Virus genome (UHGV): UHGV-0349718
Origin: a virus
Strand: one strand, 5' to 3'
DNA: 13,399 nt
Part shown: piece by piece, positions 4,487 through 11,457 of the stretch
Position numbering within the stretch: position 1 is the first letter of the stretch
Layout of the letters: the number at the start of each line of letters is the position of its first letter
Program-made: the position numbers and the translations under genes
Notes under the pieces: model-generated
What the model saw: only the letters and a program-made list of their open reading frames with translations
What the model was told of the DNA's origin: nothing
Database searches by the model: none

Positions 4487-4677
4487 GGGCGCACCTCCGC
4501 CGTAGTGATGTATTTAACCGGACTGCCTTTCATTGCGATGGTTTCACACATCTCCGCTGCTTTACGTTCCGCTGTTTTCCTAGATTTATAGCGGCGGTGC
4601 CAGACAGACGTATCCGTGCGAACTGATACATCGTTTCTGTATTCAGTTGTGGAAATAATAATTTCGTAACTAATCAT
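4483..4677 (-). CDS. Hypothetical phage protein (64 aa)
   Basis: ATG at 4677 overlaps the stop of the 220-aa gene (ATGA), with GGAGGT 6 nt upstream; the track ORF begins 5 codons earlier at 4692. Confidence 0.5.
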   Translation of the reverse strand: MISYEIIISTTEYRNDVSVRTDTSVWHRRYKSRKTAERKAAEMCETIAMKGSPVKYITTAEVRP

Positions 4678-5336
4678 GGACGCACCTCCCATTGATTACG
4701 GCGGAAAGCGGTGTGATTCAGGTTAGTTTCTGCCTCATGGAATGCTTCAATACAGCTCTCGTAGTACCGCATTGTGCGGAGACTTAACCCAAGCTGAAGC
4801 ATCATCAAACCATCAAGGGTGATGTAATAACCATGCAGAGAATCACCATAGATGTGATAAGTACCCGGTATGAAATTGCAGGTAAAAAATTCGCGCGAGC
4901 AGTTCAGATACTCGATTTTGTCGACGATGTTCTGGTGCATGCGCTTGAAATGACAGGCAACATGCAGAGAGAAAATAACGGCCTTGCCGTTGACGACTTC
5001 GATTTTGAGAAATGGGGAAGTTGGGACAGTAGCCATGATGGCAGCCTCCTTGAGCAGTGAAAAACTTCCACCACCGGAGGTTCCAAGCTCGCTGGTGGCG
5101 GACTGAACAGGGTTGGAACTACCGGCGCTCAAGGAAACCGGCGAGCCTTTCGGCTCCCCTGCCCAGCCCACCATAATTCTGGCGTGCGCGAGCATGGACG
5201 ATAAAAAAGACGCTGGCGCGTCGTATATCGCCTCGAGCAATTCCGGGGTTCCAATCCCGGCACCCGCTTTATAAGGTGCGGAGACAGTGTAACGTCCCGA
5301 AATTGCAGAATCAATATTTAGGCTTGAAACATTCAT
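4674..5336 (-). CDS. Hypothetical phage protein (220 aa) with a Ser/Gly-rich low-complexity linker
   Basis: Long ORF heading the overlapping chain; weak SD; central stretch SAGSSNPVQSATSELGTSGGGS. No recognisable domain. Confidence 0.5.
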   Translation of the reverse strand: MNVSSLNIDSAISGRYTVSAPYKAGAGIGTPELLEAIYDAPASFLSSMLAHARIMVGWAGEPKGSPVSLSAGSSNPVQSATSELGTSGGGSFSLLKEAAIMATVPTSPFLKIEVVNGKAVIFSLHVACHFKRMHQNIVDKIEYLNCSREFFTCNFIPGTYHIYGDSLHGYYITLDGLMMLQLGLSLRTMRYYESCIEAFHEAETNLNHTAFRRNQWEVRP

Positions 5337-6614: not shown

Positions 6615-6857
6615 TCACTCCTCCCCCGTGTGCGCTAAGCTTGGGTGTGGGAAAAGCTCTGGTAGATCTGGACGAAATTCATACGATTGGATCTTTCCGT
6701 CGACAGCTGCAACCAATAACGGCACAAATTCGGGTGAAATCTTGTTCTTGCAGTTAAGCCAATCACAGACTGTTGATTGAGCCTTTCCGCATCGCTTGGC
6801 TAAGGCTTGTTGGCTCCCAAGAATCTCAATGGCTTTTTCTATAGCTTTATGTTTCAT
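6615..6857 (-). CDS. cro: Cro-like HTH transcriptional regulator (80 aa)
   Basis: HTH motif ...GSQQALAKRCGKAQSTVCDWLN...; divergent from the CI-like repressor; ATG at 6857 with AGGAG 8 nt upstream (track ORF starts further upstream at 6929). Confidence 0.7.
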   Translation of the reverse strand: MKHKAIEKAIEILGSQQALAKRCGKAQSTVCDWLNCKNKISPEFVPLLVAAVDGKIQSYEFRPDLPELFPHPSLAHTGEE

Positions 6858-6976
6858 AATCGCATCTCCTATTGACGACATATTATCAATAGGTAAATCG
6901 ATATTCAACGTTAAACCTAGAAGTTTCATCGGAAAGCCGATAAACTGCCCAACATAGAGAGGAGAGGAAGATCACA
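6858..6976. promoter_or_regulatory. Divergent cI-cro control region (OR-like): operator palindrome and PR-like promoter
   Basis: Palindrome CCTATTGA-N10-TCAATAGG (6868-6893). On the minus strand, -35 TTGAAT (6908-6903), 17-nt spacer, -10 TAATAT (6885-6880), overlapping the palindrome. Strong SD GGAGAGGAAG precedes the cI ATG at 6977. Confidence 0.6.
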
Positions 6977-7669
6977 ATGACATTTTCAGAACGACTTGAT
7001 TTAGCTATGCGCAACGCCAAATTTACGCAAGGCAGGCTGGCCAAAGAAGTAGGTATGGCCCAGTCAAGCGTCAATCAATTACTTAACAAAGCCAACGGTT
7101 CCAGGAAAACAGTTGAAATAGCAAAAGTTTTGGGCGTTAACCCGGAATGGCTCGCATCTGGTGTCGGTCCAATGGAAATCGAGACCTCTGCAGACTCACA
7201 CCAAATACGTAACATTTCAGAAGACAGGATTACTGATTCGTATGTCGTGGATGTTTTAGACATCAGATACAGTTGCGGGCCTGGTAGTTATAACTCTGAT
7301 TTTCCAGACATTGTCAGATCTATAGCGATAGAACCAGGATACGCATCAAGAGTTTTTGGCGGCAGACCAGCATCAGCAATCAAAGCAATAAACGCCCACG
7401 GCGACAGCATGAAAGGCACAATAAACCCTGAGGACTTGGTGTTTGTTGACGTATCAGTTCGCTCATTTAATGGCGATGGTATATACGCTTTTACATACTC
7501 TGGAACATCGCACATCAAAAGGCTTCAAAAAATCAAAGACACCCTAACAGTGATCTCAGACAATCCAGCTTACAAAGATTGGGCTATCGAACAAGATGAC
7601 TTCGAGCAACTTCACATTGACGGAAAAGTAATCGTAAGTTGGCCTATGACGCTACACCGTTTCGCATAA
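6977..7669 (+). CDS. cI: CI-type prophage repressor (N-terminal HTH, C-terminal LexA-like S24 autopeptidase domain)
   Basis: N-terminal HTH (...FTQGRLAKEVGMAQSSVNQLL...); C-terminal Ser in AHGDSMKG and Lys in SHIKRL, the S24 catalytic dyad pattern; divergent to cro. Confidence 0.9.
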   Translation: MTFSERLDLAMRNAKFTQGRLAKEVGMAQSSVNQLLNKANGSRKTVEIAKVLGVNPEWLASGVGPMEIETSADSHQIRNISEDRITDSYVVDVLDIRYSCGPGSYNSDFPDIVRSIAIEPGYASRVFGGRPASAIKAINAHGDSMKGTINPEDLVFVDVSVRSFNGDGIYAFTYSGTSHIKRLQKIKDTLTVISDNPAYKDWAIEQDDFEQLHIDGKVIVSWPMTLHRFA

Positions 7670-7692
7670 GCGATAATTATTTAACATCCCCG

Positions 7693-7717
7693 CCCACTCC
7701 ACGAGTGGGTTTTTTTT
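7693..7717 (+). terminator. Rho-independent terminator after cI
   Basis: CCCACTC-cac-GAGTGGG hairpin (7693-7709) followed by T8 (7710-7717). Confidence 0.75.
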
Positions 7718-7736: not shown

Positions 7737-7765
7737 TTGACAACACAAATAGGTAAACCTATTAT
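7737..7765 (+). promoter_or_regulatory. Near-consensus sigma70 promoter (PL-like) with operator-like palindrome in the spacer
   Basis: -35 TTGACA (7737-7742), 17-nt spacer, -10 TATTAT (7760-7765); spacer contains AATAGG-taaa-CCTATT (7748-7763), sharing AATAGGTAAA with the cI-cro operator region. Confidence 0.65.
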
Positions 7766-7805
7766 CATGACATAAGTATCGAACTCACCAAAACAATTAT
7801 AGAGG

Positions 7806-8225
7806 ATGAGGAAAATGTCATCGTATATGGGGTTACCAACAAATCAACACGATGCTCTTGAGAATATTCAACTCTTAGTAGGGGCTGGAGCACTACTATA
7901 TAGCAGCAATAACCCTGAGTTAATTGAACTTGCCAGCTCCATCCTGGCTGTAACTCAAAAATATAGCCTCACCGCGTCGCGTTCATGCAAACAAAATTTA
8001 GCCATTAATTCACAGAATCGGATTCGCACCCAACGCGAAGCCTGCGGCTTAACAACCGCCGAACTCGCCAGGCTGCTCGATCTCGATGAAGAAATCATCA
8101 TCCAGTGGGAAAGCGGAGAGTATGAACCAACTATCAGTATGCTTATCCCACTGGCAAATGTTCTTGGTTGCGACCCGATGTGGCTGTTAACCGGTAAACC
8201 AACAGCTGGAGATACTTGCGCATGA
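7806..8225 (+). CDS. HTH-XRE family DNA-binding protein (139 aa; C-terminal HTH, N-terminal region unrecognised)
   Basis: C-terminal ...IRTQREACGLTTAELARLLDLDEEIIIQWESGEYEPTISMLIPLANVLGCDPMWLLTG is a classic XRE-type HTH. First gene after the PL-like promoter; alternative start at ATG 7815. Confidence 0.65.
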   Translation: MRKMSSYMGLPTNQHDALENIQLLVGAGALLYSSNNPELIELASSILAVTQKYSLTASRSCKQNLAINSQNRIRTQREACGLTTAELARLLDLDEEIIIQWESGEYEPTISMLIPLANVLGCDPMWLLTGKPTAGDTCA

Positions 8226-8587: not shown

Positions 8588-8785
8588 CAACAAACATGCT
8601 CTGAACGTTTATTACGGTTTTATCGCCGGGGATTGTTACAACCTTTATTCATAGAGGGAACTCAGTTATGACTTTCCTGAAAAATAAGGCATCGTATAAA
8701 ACTGCCTGCCTCATTGCACAACATGGAGATTCTTATCTTCATATAGCCAACCTGTATTTGCGCAAGGCTTATGGGAGATAAAATA

Positions 8786-9004
8786 ATGGAGACATCAGCA
8801 CGAAATAAAATGCAGAATGAGCCTGAGCAGGGGGGGGTAATACACGAAAAAGTAAGAGTGTTGCTAACCATTGAAAATGGGAAAGTAATTTACTCAAAAC
8901 ATCTGTTGGATAATGAATTCGTTGGCTGCATGGATACATTTCTGTGGATGGCAAAAAGAGCTGGCTACACGATTATTCCACCAGCAAAGGAGCAAACATT
9001 ATGA
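8786..9004 (+). CDS. Hypothetical protein (72 aa)
   Basis: ATG at 8786 with GGGAGA 7 nt upstream (alternative ATG at 8771); its stop overlaps the next start (ATGA). Confidence 0.45.
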   Translation: METSARNKMQNEPEQGGVIHEKVRVLLTIENGKVIYSKHLLDNEFVGCMDTFLWMAKRAGYTIIPPAKEQTL

Positions 9005-9582
9005 ATCATTCAGAGTTCCGACCAGAAGTTACGCCACATGGCATAAAAATTGGCAATACAACCATTAATTTTGTTGATGCCGTACAGCGACTTAATGATG
9101 GTGAATACGACAATCCATACTGGCACGGCTTAAGAATCATGCAATGTATTGCTGAAGCCGATGATGCCGGATTCCTGGGAAGATTTTCAGTCGATATGAA
9201 GGTTGCTCAATGGCGCTGGCTGTATGTGGCAACGTTTATCAGTGAAGAGGAAAACAAGAACGGCACCATTGATATCCCTAACGATAACGGAACCACAGAT
9301 CACGCAGTTATTTATAAGGGAAAGCATGGTTGTATAAGTATATACCCGGGGCCACTTCGCATTGCCCTGCAAAACCATGTCGAATGGGGATTTATTGAAA
9401 AATATGGCGAAACTGAAGGCATGGGGCGAGTTCTGTTTCTCTATCAAAAAATGCTCATCGCAGATCCTGATAATGGTTTCATTCTCTCTGCTATGGGGCG
9501 CGAAGGGCTTGAACTCCTTCTGGATGAAATAATTAACGACCTGAATACTCATGGTATGCCAGAAGCGCCAGTGACACATTAA
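9001..9582 (+). CDS. Hypothetical protein (193 aa)
   Basis: ATG at 9001 with AAGGAG 8 nt upstream, overlapping the upstream stop; the track ORF start at 8944 is discounted. No recognisable domain. Confidence 0.6.
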   Translation: MNHSEFRPEVTPHGIKIGNTTINFVDAVQRLNDGEYDNPYWHGLRIMQCIAEADDAGFLGRFSVDMKVAQWRWLYVATFISEEENKNGTIDIPNDNGTTDHAVIYKGKHGCISIYPGPLRIALQNHVEWGFIEKYGETEGMGRVLFLYQKMLIADPDNGFILSAMGREGLELLLDEIINDLNTHGMPEAPVTH

Positions 9583-9589
9583 ATATTAA

Positions 9590-9614
9590 GAAGAAAATAA
9601 TTCTTCCGTTTTTT
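9590..9614 (+). terminator. Weak AT-rich hairpin plus T-run (possible terminator)
   Basis: GAAGAA-aataa-TTCTTC (9590-9606) followed by cg-TTTTTT (9609-9614); low-GC stem. Confidence 0.35.
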
Positions 9615-9627
9615 ACTAACCGTTTAT

Positions 9628-9735
9628 ATGAAAAGCAACCGTGAATTAAACAGAGTAAAACTGATTTTAATCCTTGCCGCAGTGCTGACACTAACTGAAA
9701 TCATTATTATCTTTATTGCGCTGTCAGTCGGTTAA
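9628..9735 (+). CDS. Small hydrophobic single-pass membrane peptide (35 aa), candidate
   Basis: ATG...TAA ORF MKSNRELNRVKLILILAAVLTLTEIIIIFIALSVG; no clear SD; below the ORF-track length cutoff. Confidence 0.3.
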   Translation: MKSNRELNRVKLILILAAVLTLTEIIIIFIALSVG

Positions 9736-9758
9736 AAATATCGGGATACCACAGACCA

Positions 9759-9947
9759 ATGAGACTGTATTTCACAATAGTAATTTTACTGGCAATTATC
9801 GCATGCATTTACGGATTACTCGTTCCGTTCCTTATATCCATGAAGGATACGATAGCAGTTATTTCTGGCTTTGCACTGGCGTTTCTGACCCCGCCCTGCA
9901 TTTATGCCATTTACAAGGGTCTTTCTTTCACTAAGGATAAAAGATGA
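9759..9947 (+). CDS. Small inner-membrane protein (62 aa, two predicted TM helices)
   Basis: Two hydrophobic segments (YFTIVILLAIIACIYGLLVPFLI and IAVISGFALAFLTPPCIYAIY); its stop overlaps the ATG of the SPFH gene (ATGA). Confidence 0.55.
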   Translation: MRLYFTIVILLAIIACIYGLLVPFLISMKDTIAVISGFALAFLTPPCIYAIYKGLSFTKDKR

Positions 9948-10771
9948 AAAAAATTATTTTTGCTTTAGCCATTATTCTGCCGACCATTAGCCTTGTCGGG
10001 TGCGATCGCGTTGAACCAGGTAATGTTGGCATCAAGGTAAATAAACTGGGCAACGACAAAGGCGTCGGTGAGGTGGTCGGTGTTGGTCGCTACTGGACTG
10101 GCTGGAATACTGAGGTTTACATCTTCCCTACCTTCAAGCAAATGAAGACCTACGATGAACCATTCAGTTTCCAGATGAGTGACGGTACAACCATCGGCTA
10201 TCACATCGGCGTGGCCTACAAAGTTGATCCATCCAAAGTTACCACGGTGTTTCAGACTTACCGCAAAGGCGTGGATGACATTACCGACACCGACCTGCGC
10301 CAGAAGATCGCCGACGCACTCAACCGACTGGCCAGCAAAATGACCACCGACAAATTTATCGACGGCGGCAAGTCTGAACTGCTGGATGCTGCTCTTAAAG
10401 ACATTCAGGCAGAAATGACACCCATCGGTATTCAGGTAATGAGCCTCTCATATGTAGGTAAACCGGAGTACCCACCAACCGTTATCGACAGCATTAATGC
10501 CAAAGTCACGGCAAACCAGAAAACCCTGCAACGCGAGCAGGAAGTAAAACAGCGCGAAGCGGAAGCCAACATGCTGCGCGCGGAAGCTGCCGGACAGGCT
10601 GATGCGATTCGCACAAAAGCCCAGGCCGAAGCCGATGCTATTCGTTTACGCGGTGAAGCTCTGCGCCAGAACCCTGGAGTTATGGAACTGGAAGCCATCA
10701 ATAAATGGAACGGCACACTGCCGCAATACATGACCAGCGGCGCCAATACGCCATTTATCCAGGTTAAATAA
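9944..10771 (+). CDS. SPFH/band-7 (HflK/C-, flotillin-like) domain lipoprotein
   Basis: Signal peptide with lipobox LVGC (Cys20); SPFH-like core (NVGIKVN...GRYWTGWNTEVYIFPTFKQ...); Ala/Glu/Gln-rich coiled-coil tail (QREQEVKQREAEANMLRAEAAGQADAIRTKAQAEADAIRLRGEALRQ). Confidence 0.75.
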   Translation: MKKIIFALAIILPTISLVGCDRVEPGNVGIKVNKLGNDKGVGEVVGVGRYWTGWNTEVYIFPTFKQMKTYDEPFSFQMSDGTTIGYHIGVAYKVDPSKVTTVFQTYRKGVDDITDTDLRQKIADALNRLASKMTTDKFIDGGKSELLDAALKDIQAEMTPIGIQVMSLSYVGKPEYPPTVIDSINAKVTANQKTLQREQEVKQREAEANMLRAEAAGQADAIRTKAQAEADAIRLRGEALRQNPGVMELEAINKWNGTLPQYMTSGANTPFIQVK

Positions 10772-10811
10772 CTTATATGCCCGGCAGACCGCCGGGCTAA
10801 GGGAAAAGCAG

Positions 10812-11183
10812 ATGAACACCCATAATACCCAACCGCAAATAATGAACTATGACCCGAATCTGACGTCATGCGGACGCATGGCAAAACAAACCGTTCGATT
10901 AACTTTCGGACTATGGGAATACCGCGAAACATTCGAAGTTACTGTCGGCGGCAATCTGACCGGACTGGATGTTATCAGTTGCGCTATTGAAAGCCTGTAC
11001 GCAACGCTGCCTTATGAAGAAGTCGAGGATGAGCGCACAGGGGAAACAGATATCATGGCCACCATTAATATTGGCGAACTGATATGTCAGGATGAAGACC
11101 TGTCCGGAGAACTCTGGCTTGCCGGGATGCTTATCTCAGCAGAAATTATCAGTATTGAACCCGCTACAAACATACGGCTCTGA
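10812..11183 (+). CDS. Hypothetical protein (123 aa), acidic
   Basis: ORF with AAGGG upstream; follows a GC-rich hairpin (10779-10797). No recognisable domain. Confidence 0.55.
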   Translation: MNTHNTQPQIMNYDPNLTSCGRMAKQTVRLTFGLWEYRETFEVTVGGNLTGLDVISCAIESLYATLPYEEVEDERTGETDIMATINIGELICQDEDLSGELWLAGMLISAEIISIEPATNIRL

Positions 11184-11214
11184 AGTTCTCACTATTCAGA
11201 GAGCAGGAGAAAAA

Positions 11215-11457
11215 ATGTTTGCTTTGATTAATCAGGGACAACTGTATACCGACAGTGCCGGTTACCCGGTAAAAATTATTCGCTGCATAAATAACACCGT
11301 GTTGTACAGAAGAATGGATGGGCGAACACAATCGGTAAAAATGAACGATTTTAATGAATCGTTTGAACGGATCGATCACCAGGAATACCGACAAATTCTG
11401 GCAGAAACAGAGCAGGAAGCTCATCTGAAAAAATTACGAGCCATGAAAAGGAAGTAG
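11215..11457 (+). CDS. Hypothetical protein (80 aa)
   Basis: ATG at 11215 with AGGAGA 4 nt upstream; the track ORF start at 11092 overlaps the previous gene and is discounted. Confidence 0.5.
   Translation: MFALINQGQLYTDSAGYPVKIIRCINNTVLYRRMDGRTQSVKMNDFNESFERIDHQEYRQILAETEQEAHLKKLRAMKRK

Follow-up and report, generated by a model that had tools for sequence, protein, structure and literature searches.

A small membrane hairpin and a predicted SPFH lipoprotein encoded as a conserved two-gene unit in a lambdoid prophage and other phages

The viral DNA stretch UHGV-0349718 (13,399 nucleotides, referred to below as the window) represents the immunity-to-integrase arm of a lambdoid prophage, in which genes coding for Q, a DnaB-like helicase, Rha and Ash proteins and cro-like and cI-like regulators are followed by a series of plus-strand genes extending to xis and int. 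Three open reading frames (ORFs) of 35, 62 and 275 codons, here termed orf35, orf62 and the SPFH gene, are located on the plus strand between positions 9583 and 10771. An initial annotation, made from the sequence alone, described them as a prophage-encoded membrane module of three genes flanked by hairpins. The surrounding lambdoid genes (Q, DnaB, Rha, cI-like, xis and int) bear out its prophage origin, and orf62 and the SPFH gene are real and linked to one another, while the inclusion of orf35 finds no such support and is discussed below with the flanking features. No lysis gene adjoins the orf62/SPFH pair in the window, and in Escherichia coli SE11 the corresponding block adjoins a DUF72 gene.

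The SPFH lipoprotein and its hairpin partner

The 275-amino acid (aa) product of the SPFH gene (9944-10771, plus strand) matches the Pfam family Band_7 (PF01145; E = 1.4e-30) with 107.1 bits against a cutoff of 23.6, the whole model being covered by residues 22-208, as well as phrog_200, labelled 'lipoprotein' (E = 4.1e-113), of which it spans profile positions 81-359 of 379. The profile search by which the initial annotation proposed to check its SPFH/band-7 lipoprotein thus returned a match far above the cutoff. The protein consists of a signal peptide (aa 1-19), an SPFH domain (approximately aa 20-175), a long helix of 65 residues (aa 178-242) and the C-terminal motif K-W-N-G-x-L-P...P-F, with the form W-x-G-x-[LMVI]-P kept in 107 of 150 representatives. 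Its N-terminus reads MKKIIFALAIILPTISLVG-C20 and ends in the lipobox LVGC, in agreement at the sequence level with the pattern by which a lipobox was recognised, a signal peptide ending in [LVI][ASTVI][GAS]C. Cys20 is encoded at 10001-10003 and is accompanied by an aspartate at position +2. The lipobox is conserved, and the aspartate is present without exception in the 95 close homologues whose lipobox could be recognised. Aspartate at +2 is the Lol-avoidance signal of E. coli lipoproteins and results in their retention in the inner membrane. Because of this residue, the SPFH lipoprotein is predicted to be kept in the inner membrane and to face the periplasm, and the periplasm-facing SPFH protein with a small membrane partner that had been proposed from the outset therefore holds as a prediction.

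The AlphaFold model of the SPFH protein, with a predicted local distance difference test (pLDDT) score of 74.9, contains strands within residues 20-94, helices at 96-161, a strand at 163-175 and the long helix at 178-242. The SPFH fold, the presence of which had been set as a further check, is evident in this model, which Foldseek aligned over nearly the full chain (approximately 280 columns) and with a probability of 1.00 to HflK/HflC, erlin1/2, prohibitin 1/2, stomatin, flotillin and QmcA. The E-values for these cage subunits range from 1e-13 to 1e-8, with HflK/HflC, erlin, prohibitin and stomatin as the best matches (1e-13 to 1e-10), and a stomatin structure with the membrane channel aquaporin 1 bound to it is also among them. 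When the family profile was compared with solved structures, HflK was the best match (E = 8.6e-7), followed by QmcA (E = 7.6e-6). The scores against the NCBIfam equivalogs for HflC (TIGR01932, 24.9 bits; cutoff 134.4) and HflK (TIGR01933, 22.7 bits; cutoff 159.4) are low, and on this comparison the protein is a member of a separate SPFH subfamily, rather than an HflK or HflC orthologue. Its identity to a protein of the Stx2e phage phiP27 is 98.5%.

The start codon of the SPFH gene overlaps the stop codon of orf62 (9759-9947, plus strand) in the sequence ATGA at 9944-9947, as first annotated. The encoded 62-aa protein shows two hydrophobic segments, which correspond to helices at residues 2-26 and 31-61 in its AlphaFold model and substantiate the two transmembrane segments originally assigned to it. 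It matches phrog_1130 'membrane protein' (E = 2.5e-23), a family which PHROGs places in the category 'moron, auxiliary metabolic gene and host takeover'. That orf62 is a coding gene is supported by the ratio of synonymous to non-synonymous changes among its relatives, which is 32:23 in frame, compared with 10:44 and 4:49 when the two alternative frames are read. The inter-helix loop, with the motif Y-G-L-x-V-P-x-L-I-S-M-K-D-T and its invariant residues, is the best-conserved part of the protein. The net charge resides at the C-terminus (KGLSFTKDKR), in keeping with the predicted N-in/C-in topology under the positive-inside rule. No match to orf62 was obtained in Pfam (E ≤ 0.01) or NCBIfam, and hence none to the NfeD family, for which a search had been suggested, or to a holin family; holin families were likewise absent among its PHROGs matches. 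A word-indexed homologue search with orf62 returned enterobacterial relatives only, all labelled hypothetical.

Two further observations concern the SPFH gene. On the minus strand, a 166-aa ORF (10432-10932) lies opposite the part coding for the alanine- and glutamate-rich helix, and comparable antisense ORFs occur opposite the SPFH gene in approximately 30 metagenomic loci; these are most likely a by-product of coiled-coil codon composition and not genes. The G+C content of the SPFH gene is 0.50-0.54, compared to 0.36-0.45 in its neighbours (9850-10900), which may reflect either the helix rich in alanine, glutamate and arginine or a different origin of the gene.

Gene pairing, natural fusions and distribution

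Directly 5' of their SPFH genes, phage-plasmids of the SSU5-like and P1-like types encode a small two-helix ORF of the orf62 type with the loop P-x-L-[IV]-S-x-x-[ST], as do the Serratia phage Spe5P4, the Burkholderia phage phiBt-TXDOH and several IMG/VR clades. In the lytic Salmonella Seunavirus SPLA5a, the partner is one gene away from the SPFH gene. Metagenome contigs were scanned with an alignment of the fused proteins described below, and 80 diverse loci were assessed. An adjacent partner is encoded in 62 of these, while three contain in-frame fusions at the DNA level, two a nearby partner, and five lie at a contig edge; in the remaining eight, none was detected with the hidden Markov model (HMM). 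The two genes are thus paired in 67 of the 75 assessable metagenomic loci (those at contig edges being excluded), and one of the eight HMM-negative loci contains a partner approximately 950 nucleotides upstream. Among the same loci no third conserved neighbour gene was found, the search yielding spurious antisense ORFs and the partner itself. A locus scan with a single fused protein (P0142) gave one partial match, while an alignment of 51 sequences proved too diverse for use as the seed of such a scan. The orf62 and SPFH genes are a conserved two-gene unit.

An exhaustive search of 1.84 billion representatives recovered 3040 SPFH relatives. Approximately 21 of the 150 best representatives at 50% identity (~14%) carry an N-terminal extension of at least 55 residues, 20 of which went into the alignment of partner sequences. 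Homologous to orf62, this extension precedes an internal segment with a signal peptide and a lipobox, and these proteins therefore represent natural fusions of the two gene products; in-frame fusions were also observed at the DNA level in the metagenomic loci L265, L273 and L303. The fused proteins (P0124-P0267; L265, L273, L303) retain the internal lipobox cysteine, and cleavage of a fused precursor by signal peptidase II could release a three-helix fragment and a mature lipoprotein. Because of the natural fusions, a ratio of one hairpin per SPFH subunit may be supposed, and they also fit a hairpin with its C-terminus in the cytoplasm. The predicted topology is self-consistent, since the positive charge at the C-terminus of the hairpin would be cytoplasmic, where the n-region of the fused signal peptide must begin.

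Relatives of the SPFH protein are encoded in 806 of 50,697 phage records, including those of strictly virulent groups (Staphylococcus Kayvirus, Seunavirus, Enterococcus myoviruses and jumbo phages) and of haloarchaeal viruses. The two-gene unit occurs in temperate phages, in virulent phages such as Seunavirus SPLA5a and in phage-plasmids, while the SPFH gene occurs alone in Kayvirus, T4-like, N4-like and jumbo phages and in haloviruses. Pfam SPFH matches in the T4-like phages 44RR, Aeh1 and RB43 were already listed in a genomics paper of 2006 (PMC1524935). The module is matched in 682 of 5426 complete E. coli genomes (~13%), both in chromosomes and in non-mobilisable plasmids of approximately 95-112 kb, and is present in Stx2a- and Stx2d-converting phages.

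Expression context and proposed role

The gene coding for the cI-like repressor of the LexA family (6977-7669) is followed on its 3' side by a strong intrinsic terminator (7692-7710; -12.6 kcal/mol, z = -3.25) and a strong promoter (7737-7765), both on the plus strand, which together probably mark the start of the operon containing the module. The promoter, TTGACA-17-TATTAT, matches the sigma-70 consensus at 11 of 12 positions, and an operator-like palindrome, AATAGGTAAACCTATT (7748-7763), overlaps its -10 element. A 20-mer in the promoter region (7737-7767) is identical at 16 of 20 positions to the cro/cI intergenic sequence at 6888-6907. The cro/cI intergenic region (6868-6907) contains the operator-like repeats CCTATTGA...TCAATAGG. 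The order of cI, tImm and pL/oL in lambda is mirrored by the cI-like gene, terminator and promoter in the window, which suggests that 7737-7765 is the equivalent of pL. A promoter scan directly 5' of the module found promoter-like sites only at chance frequency. The module is probably part of a repressor-controlled early-left (pL-type) operon, which would be silent in the lysogen and switched on soon after induction. The gene at 7806-8225, which encodes a helix-turn-helix (HTH) protein, is the first after the putative pL, a position occupied by N in lambda.

Several characterised systems resemble the phage pair in part. The HflK/HflC proteins, which associate with FtsH in E. coli (PDB 7VHP, 7VHQ, 7WI3 and 9CZ2), are likewise SPFH proteins with an inner-membrane anchor and a periplasmic orientation, share the layout of SPFH domain, long wall helix and C-terminal cap segment, and provide the best match among solved structures. 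They are, however, anchored by an N-terminal helix and encoded by a K/C gene pair, whereas the phage system combines a lipid anchor, a single SPFH gene and a two-helix partner. FtsH binding is known for HflK/HflC and would be a candidate activity of the phage SPFH protein. HflK/C cages enclose the periplasmic domains of FtsH, and a contact of HflK Arg191 with FtsH residues 62-64 has been reported (PMC12048511). The SPFH-NfeD operons, such as those coding for QmcA-YbbJ in E. coli (PDB 8Z5G) and for the stomatin PH1511 and the NfeD protease PH1510 in Pyrococcus, likewise combine the gene for an SPFH scaffold with that for a small membrane protein, and QmcA matched the phage protein both by profile and by Foldseek. 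The phage partner, with 62 aa and two helices, lacks the OB-fold domain of NfeD. Fusions of partner and SPFH protein exist in the SPFH-NfeD systems too. The SPFH domain of QmcA faces the cytoplasm, whereas that of the phage protein is predicted to face the periplasm.

The cages of prohibitin 1/2 and erlin 1/2 gave comparable Foldseek scores over the full length, the C-terminal helix of the phage SPFH protein is similar in sequence to prohibitin-2, and some phage records name the homologue 'prohibitin family protein'. Prohibitin and erlin cages are located on the non-cytoplasmic side of their membranes and are tied to proteolysis (m-AAA proteases, endoplasmic-reticulum-associated degradation). 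Both are hetero-oligomers of eukaryotic organelles that are anchored by N-terminal transmembrane segments and possess neither a hairpin partner nor a lipid anchor. Among phages, Staphylococcus Kayvirus encodes the SPFH protein MbpS, with the gene for a small membrane protein (MbpV) directly 5' (PMC7150955); MbpS shares only approximately 27% identity with the SPFH protein in the window. An HflK/C-like SPFH protein, PM0222, is encoded in a lambda-like prophage of Pasteurella multocida and has been studied as an inflammatory and virulence factor only, not for its part in phage biology (PMC9872710); its likeness to the protein in the window is drawn from its description.

The reading preferred here, with a probability of roughly 0.45, is that orf62 and the SPFH protein constitute a split HflK/C-like periplasmic assembly, which organises the inner membrane for phage growth. 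At an early stage of the lytic cycle both proteins would be inserted into the inner membrane, where the SPFH protein would be lipidated at Cys20 and held on the periplasmic face by the aspartate at +2. Its long helix and conserved C-terminal motif would mediate oligomerisation into a ring or cage, as in HflK/C, prohibitin and erlin. The hairpin, at one copy per SPFH subunit, would supply a membrane-spanning palisade beyond the reach of the lipid anchor alone, and its conserved periplasmic loop may contact the SPFH domain. The assembly might then fence off a patch of inner membrane and control a membrane client for general phage growth, rather than act as a lysis-lysogeny switch. The nature of this client is a guess; by the precedents of HflK/C with FtsH and of prohibitin with the m-AAA proteases, the leading candidate, at about one in four, is the quality-control protease FtsH, with altered turnover of membrane and phage proteins as the expected result. 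A dedicated role in the lysis-lysogeny decision or in defence of the lysogen appears less likely than a general role in infection, because of the virulent carriers and the probable early lytic operon. It is an unlikely generalisation that many phage lineages deploy such a split mimic of the HflK/C cage to wall off an inner-membrane machine, FtsH first, and thereby reprogramme membrane-protein quality control during infection.

A number of observations weigh against the split-assembly reading. Identity to HflK/C is remote (~17%), and at this level, although the region around HflK Arg191 aligns (LRQ...AL[RN]), the equivalent residue cannot be confidently assigned. A client like that of HflK/C is not readable from the predicted fold, which matches erlin, prohibitin and stomatin equally well. 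The AlphaFold model is of a monomer only, and its C-terminal 21 residues (255-275) have a pLDDT below 50. The fused representatives (ten looked up) are singletons from automated (Logan) assemblies, yet the three in-frame fusions at the DNA level stand beside them. In Kayvirus, the partner MbpV consists of one helix and a charged tail, shows no detectable kinship to orf62 and is encoded in the lysis region. SPFH relatives also occur in viruses of haloarchaea, hosts which are not known to possess FtsH, and thus a more general membrane role may be favoured over one centred on this protease. Repressor control of the module is deduced from a single shared 20-mer, the similarity of which could be due to chance.

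Four other roles may be considered for the pair. The initial annotation had offered superinfection exclusion or abortive infection, whereby the two membrane proteins would block DNA entry at the inner membrane or collapse the membrane and so protect the lysogen or the infected cell. Classical exclusion factors include phage lipoproteins (T5 Llp, phi80 Cor and TP-J34 Ltp) and small inner-membrane proteins (T4 Imm, P22 SieA and HK97 gp15), in keeping with the nature of both gene products here, and virulent phages likewise carry exclusion genes. The PHROGs category of the partner and the location of the module in a stretch of exchangeable accessory genes that separates the immunity region from xis/int would also suit this role, and an adsorption or DNA-entry function has been guessed at in a study that describes the reason for the SPFH gene in phage genomes as unclear (PMC13239085). 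The proposal is nevertheless weakened. In a search of nine proteins of the region against PADLOC-DB 2.0 (E ≤ 0.01), orf35, orf62 and the SPFH protein matched no model, and prophage defence requires expression in the lysogen, whereas the module has a probable repressor-controlled early promoter and no above-chance promoter nearby. Conservation across hosts with differing receptors, namely enterobacteria, Burkholderia and the hosts of environmental phages, is better accounted for by a general membrane function, and no experimental report of exclusion was found in the literature searched; exclusion is thus considered unlikely. A similarly unlikely role is that of a lysis-timing or membrane-integrity device, in which the hairpin would be holin- or channel-like and an SPFH ring would restrain it or the phage holins, or stabilise the energised membrane. 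SPFH proteins of animals gate channels, and the stomatin-aquaporin 1 structure is among the Foldseek matches. The generic features of class II holins (approximately 60-70 aa, two helices, a predicted N-in/C-in topology and a charged C-terminus) are seen in orf62, the SPFH family is enriched in large virulent phages, and Kayvirus mbpS is situated between the endolysin and transglycosylase genes, beside the holin-like MbpV (PMC7150955). Here and in most loci examined, however, the pair is located away from lysis genes, orf62 matches no holin family in Pfam or PHROGs, and a pore-former acting freely is difficult to square with its covalent joining to the SPFH protein in many relatives.

A phage mimic of HflK/C that tunes FtsH to set the lysis-lysogeny decision, in the manner of the lambda CII/CIII circuit, had been the first suggestion of the initial annotation, and mutations in hflK and hflC do alter lambda lysogenisation through FtsH. 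The predicted periplasmic orientation, with HflK as the best relative in sequence and fold among solved structures, points the same way, as does the match of the HTH protein encoded at 7806-8225 to PHROG 4836, labelled 'CII-like regulator' (E = 8e-51). It has also been speculated in print that the SPFH protein of Burkholderia phage CSP3 drives lysogeny via FtsH (PMC10269572). The same 7806-8225 protein, however, showed no similarity to lambda CII by BLASTP (with a manually entered CII sequence), and no gene resembling that for CIII was found. The SPFH protein falls more than 100 bits short of the equivalog cutoffs for HflK and HflC, and the pair occurs in strictly virulent phages, which make no lysogeny decision (PMC1524935). 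As stated, this suggestion is unsupported and must be considered improbable. Least probable of all, to the point of being hardly credible, is a lysogenic-conversion factor, a surface or vesicle lipoprotein that stimulates Toll-like receptors (TLR) 1/2 and adds to virulence. P. multocida PM0222 has been reported in outer-membrane vesicles, with TLR1/2 activation and an effect on virulence in mice (PMC9872710), and the module is carried by Stx2-converting phages. Yet any bacterial lipoprotein is a TLR2 ligand, the aspartate at +2 predicts retention in the inner membrane and not surface exposure, and such a role leaves no place for the conserved hairpin partner, nor does it account for conservation in environmental, plant-pathogen, virulent and archaeal-virus settings.

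A search of the literature for phage SPFH, prohibitin and band 7 proteins yielded annotation and speculation only and no experimental function; for the Kayvirus protein, help in the secretion of a lytic enzyme was speculated (PMC7150955). Survey papers on SPFH proteins leave phages unmentioned. The gene family itself has catalogue entries, whereas descriptions of the fusions and of the obligate hairpin partner appear to be lacking from the literature searched. The cages of SPFH proteins (HflK/C, prohibitin, stomatin, flotillin and erlin) have been solved in succession while their clients and purpose are debated, and a compact phage version with a defined and often fused minimal partner would provide a simple model for the anchoring and contents of such cages. 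The family is common, including in Stx2-converting phages, phage-plasmids and virulent phages of the therapeutic type, and therefore matters for annotation and phage engineering. If the pair acts on FtsH or membrane integrity, a new route of host takeover would be implied; should the cage-mimic reading be true, this would be a widespread host-takeover mechanism not yet described, in which the internal lipobox of the fused forms would let signal peptidase II yield the same two parts. If it instead excludes other phages, it would constitute a defence family missing from current catalogues.

Flanking features and neighbouring genes

The 35-codon hydrophobic ORF orf35 (9628-9735, plus strand) is a doubtful gene outside the conserved unit. 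It is not preceded by a Shine-Dalgarno sequence, and family matches are absent in Pfam, NCBIfam and PHROGs. Its variable sites, scored over 37 related sequences, split 10/4/10 between the three codon positions, the ratio of synonymous to non-synonymous changes is 8:19 in frame versus 7:20 and 4:23 out of frame, and its variability equals that of the flanking intergenic DNA. A 181-bp segment containing orf35 (9587-9767) is exchanged in relatives for unrelated ORFs, while orf62 and the SPFH gene stay in place and similarity to the window resumes at 9768; by this comparison the segment is a replaceable cassette or swap site. The slot upstream of orf62 may contain a 92-aa basic soluble ORF with ATGA coupling to orf62 (L025, 2541-2819) or an unrelated 130-aa ORF (L053, 2363-2755). 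An Rfam scan of 9583-10771, including 9583-9758, detected no RNA families, and orf35 as a type I toxin-like peptide was rejected, both coding and RNA signals being absent.

Of the two hairpins thought to flank the module, only the downstream one departs from expectation. The upstream AT-rich hairpin with its run of six U residues (9590-9614, stem 9590-9606, plus strand), directly 3' of the stop codon of the preceding gene, has a folding energy of -4.3 kcal/mol (z = -0.74), which is at chance level, as 40 of 200 shuffled sequences fold as well or better; it represents a leaky terminator at best. The GC-rich hairpin between the SPFH and DUF5406 genes (10779-10797, plus strand) is real (-17.1 kcal/mol, z = -3.0). 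It has no U tract, was not called in the terminator scan and is followed directly by the Shine-Dalgarno sequence of the next gene.

Directly 3' of the module are a DUF5406 gene (10812-11183) and a DUF4222 gene (within 11092-11457), which, through to xis and int, remain linked to the module in relatives with different upstream genes. On the upstream side, the 212-aa ORF listed at 8944-9582 begins with GTG, while the ATG at 9001 is the likelier start, gives 193 aa in line with the E. coli SE11 annotation and overlaps the stop codon of a 77-aa gene (8771-9004) by ATGA; its product matches phrog_1515, labelled as of unknown function. For the gene in the cro position (6615-6857, minus strand), HTH models and Pfam YdaS_toxin (E = 6.8e-15) were both matched; its translation probably begins downstream of the listed start (6929), at the ATG at 6857, which has a Shine-Dalgarno sequence. 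Further along the minus strand, a C4 antisense RNA (Rfam RF01695, 84 bits; 5091-5178) and an isrK Hfq-binding RNA (RF01394, 63 bits; 5203-5279) are both located inside the 5' part of the Ash/Rha-domain ORF (4674-5336), a region which looks like a P1/P7-type c4/ant antirepressor control module within a lambdoid prophage.

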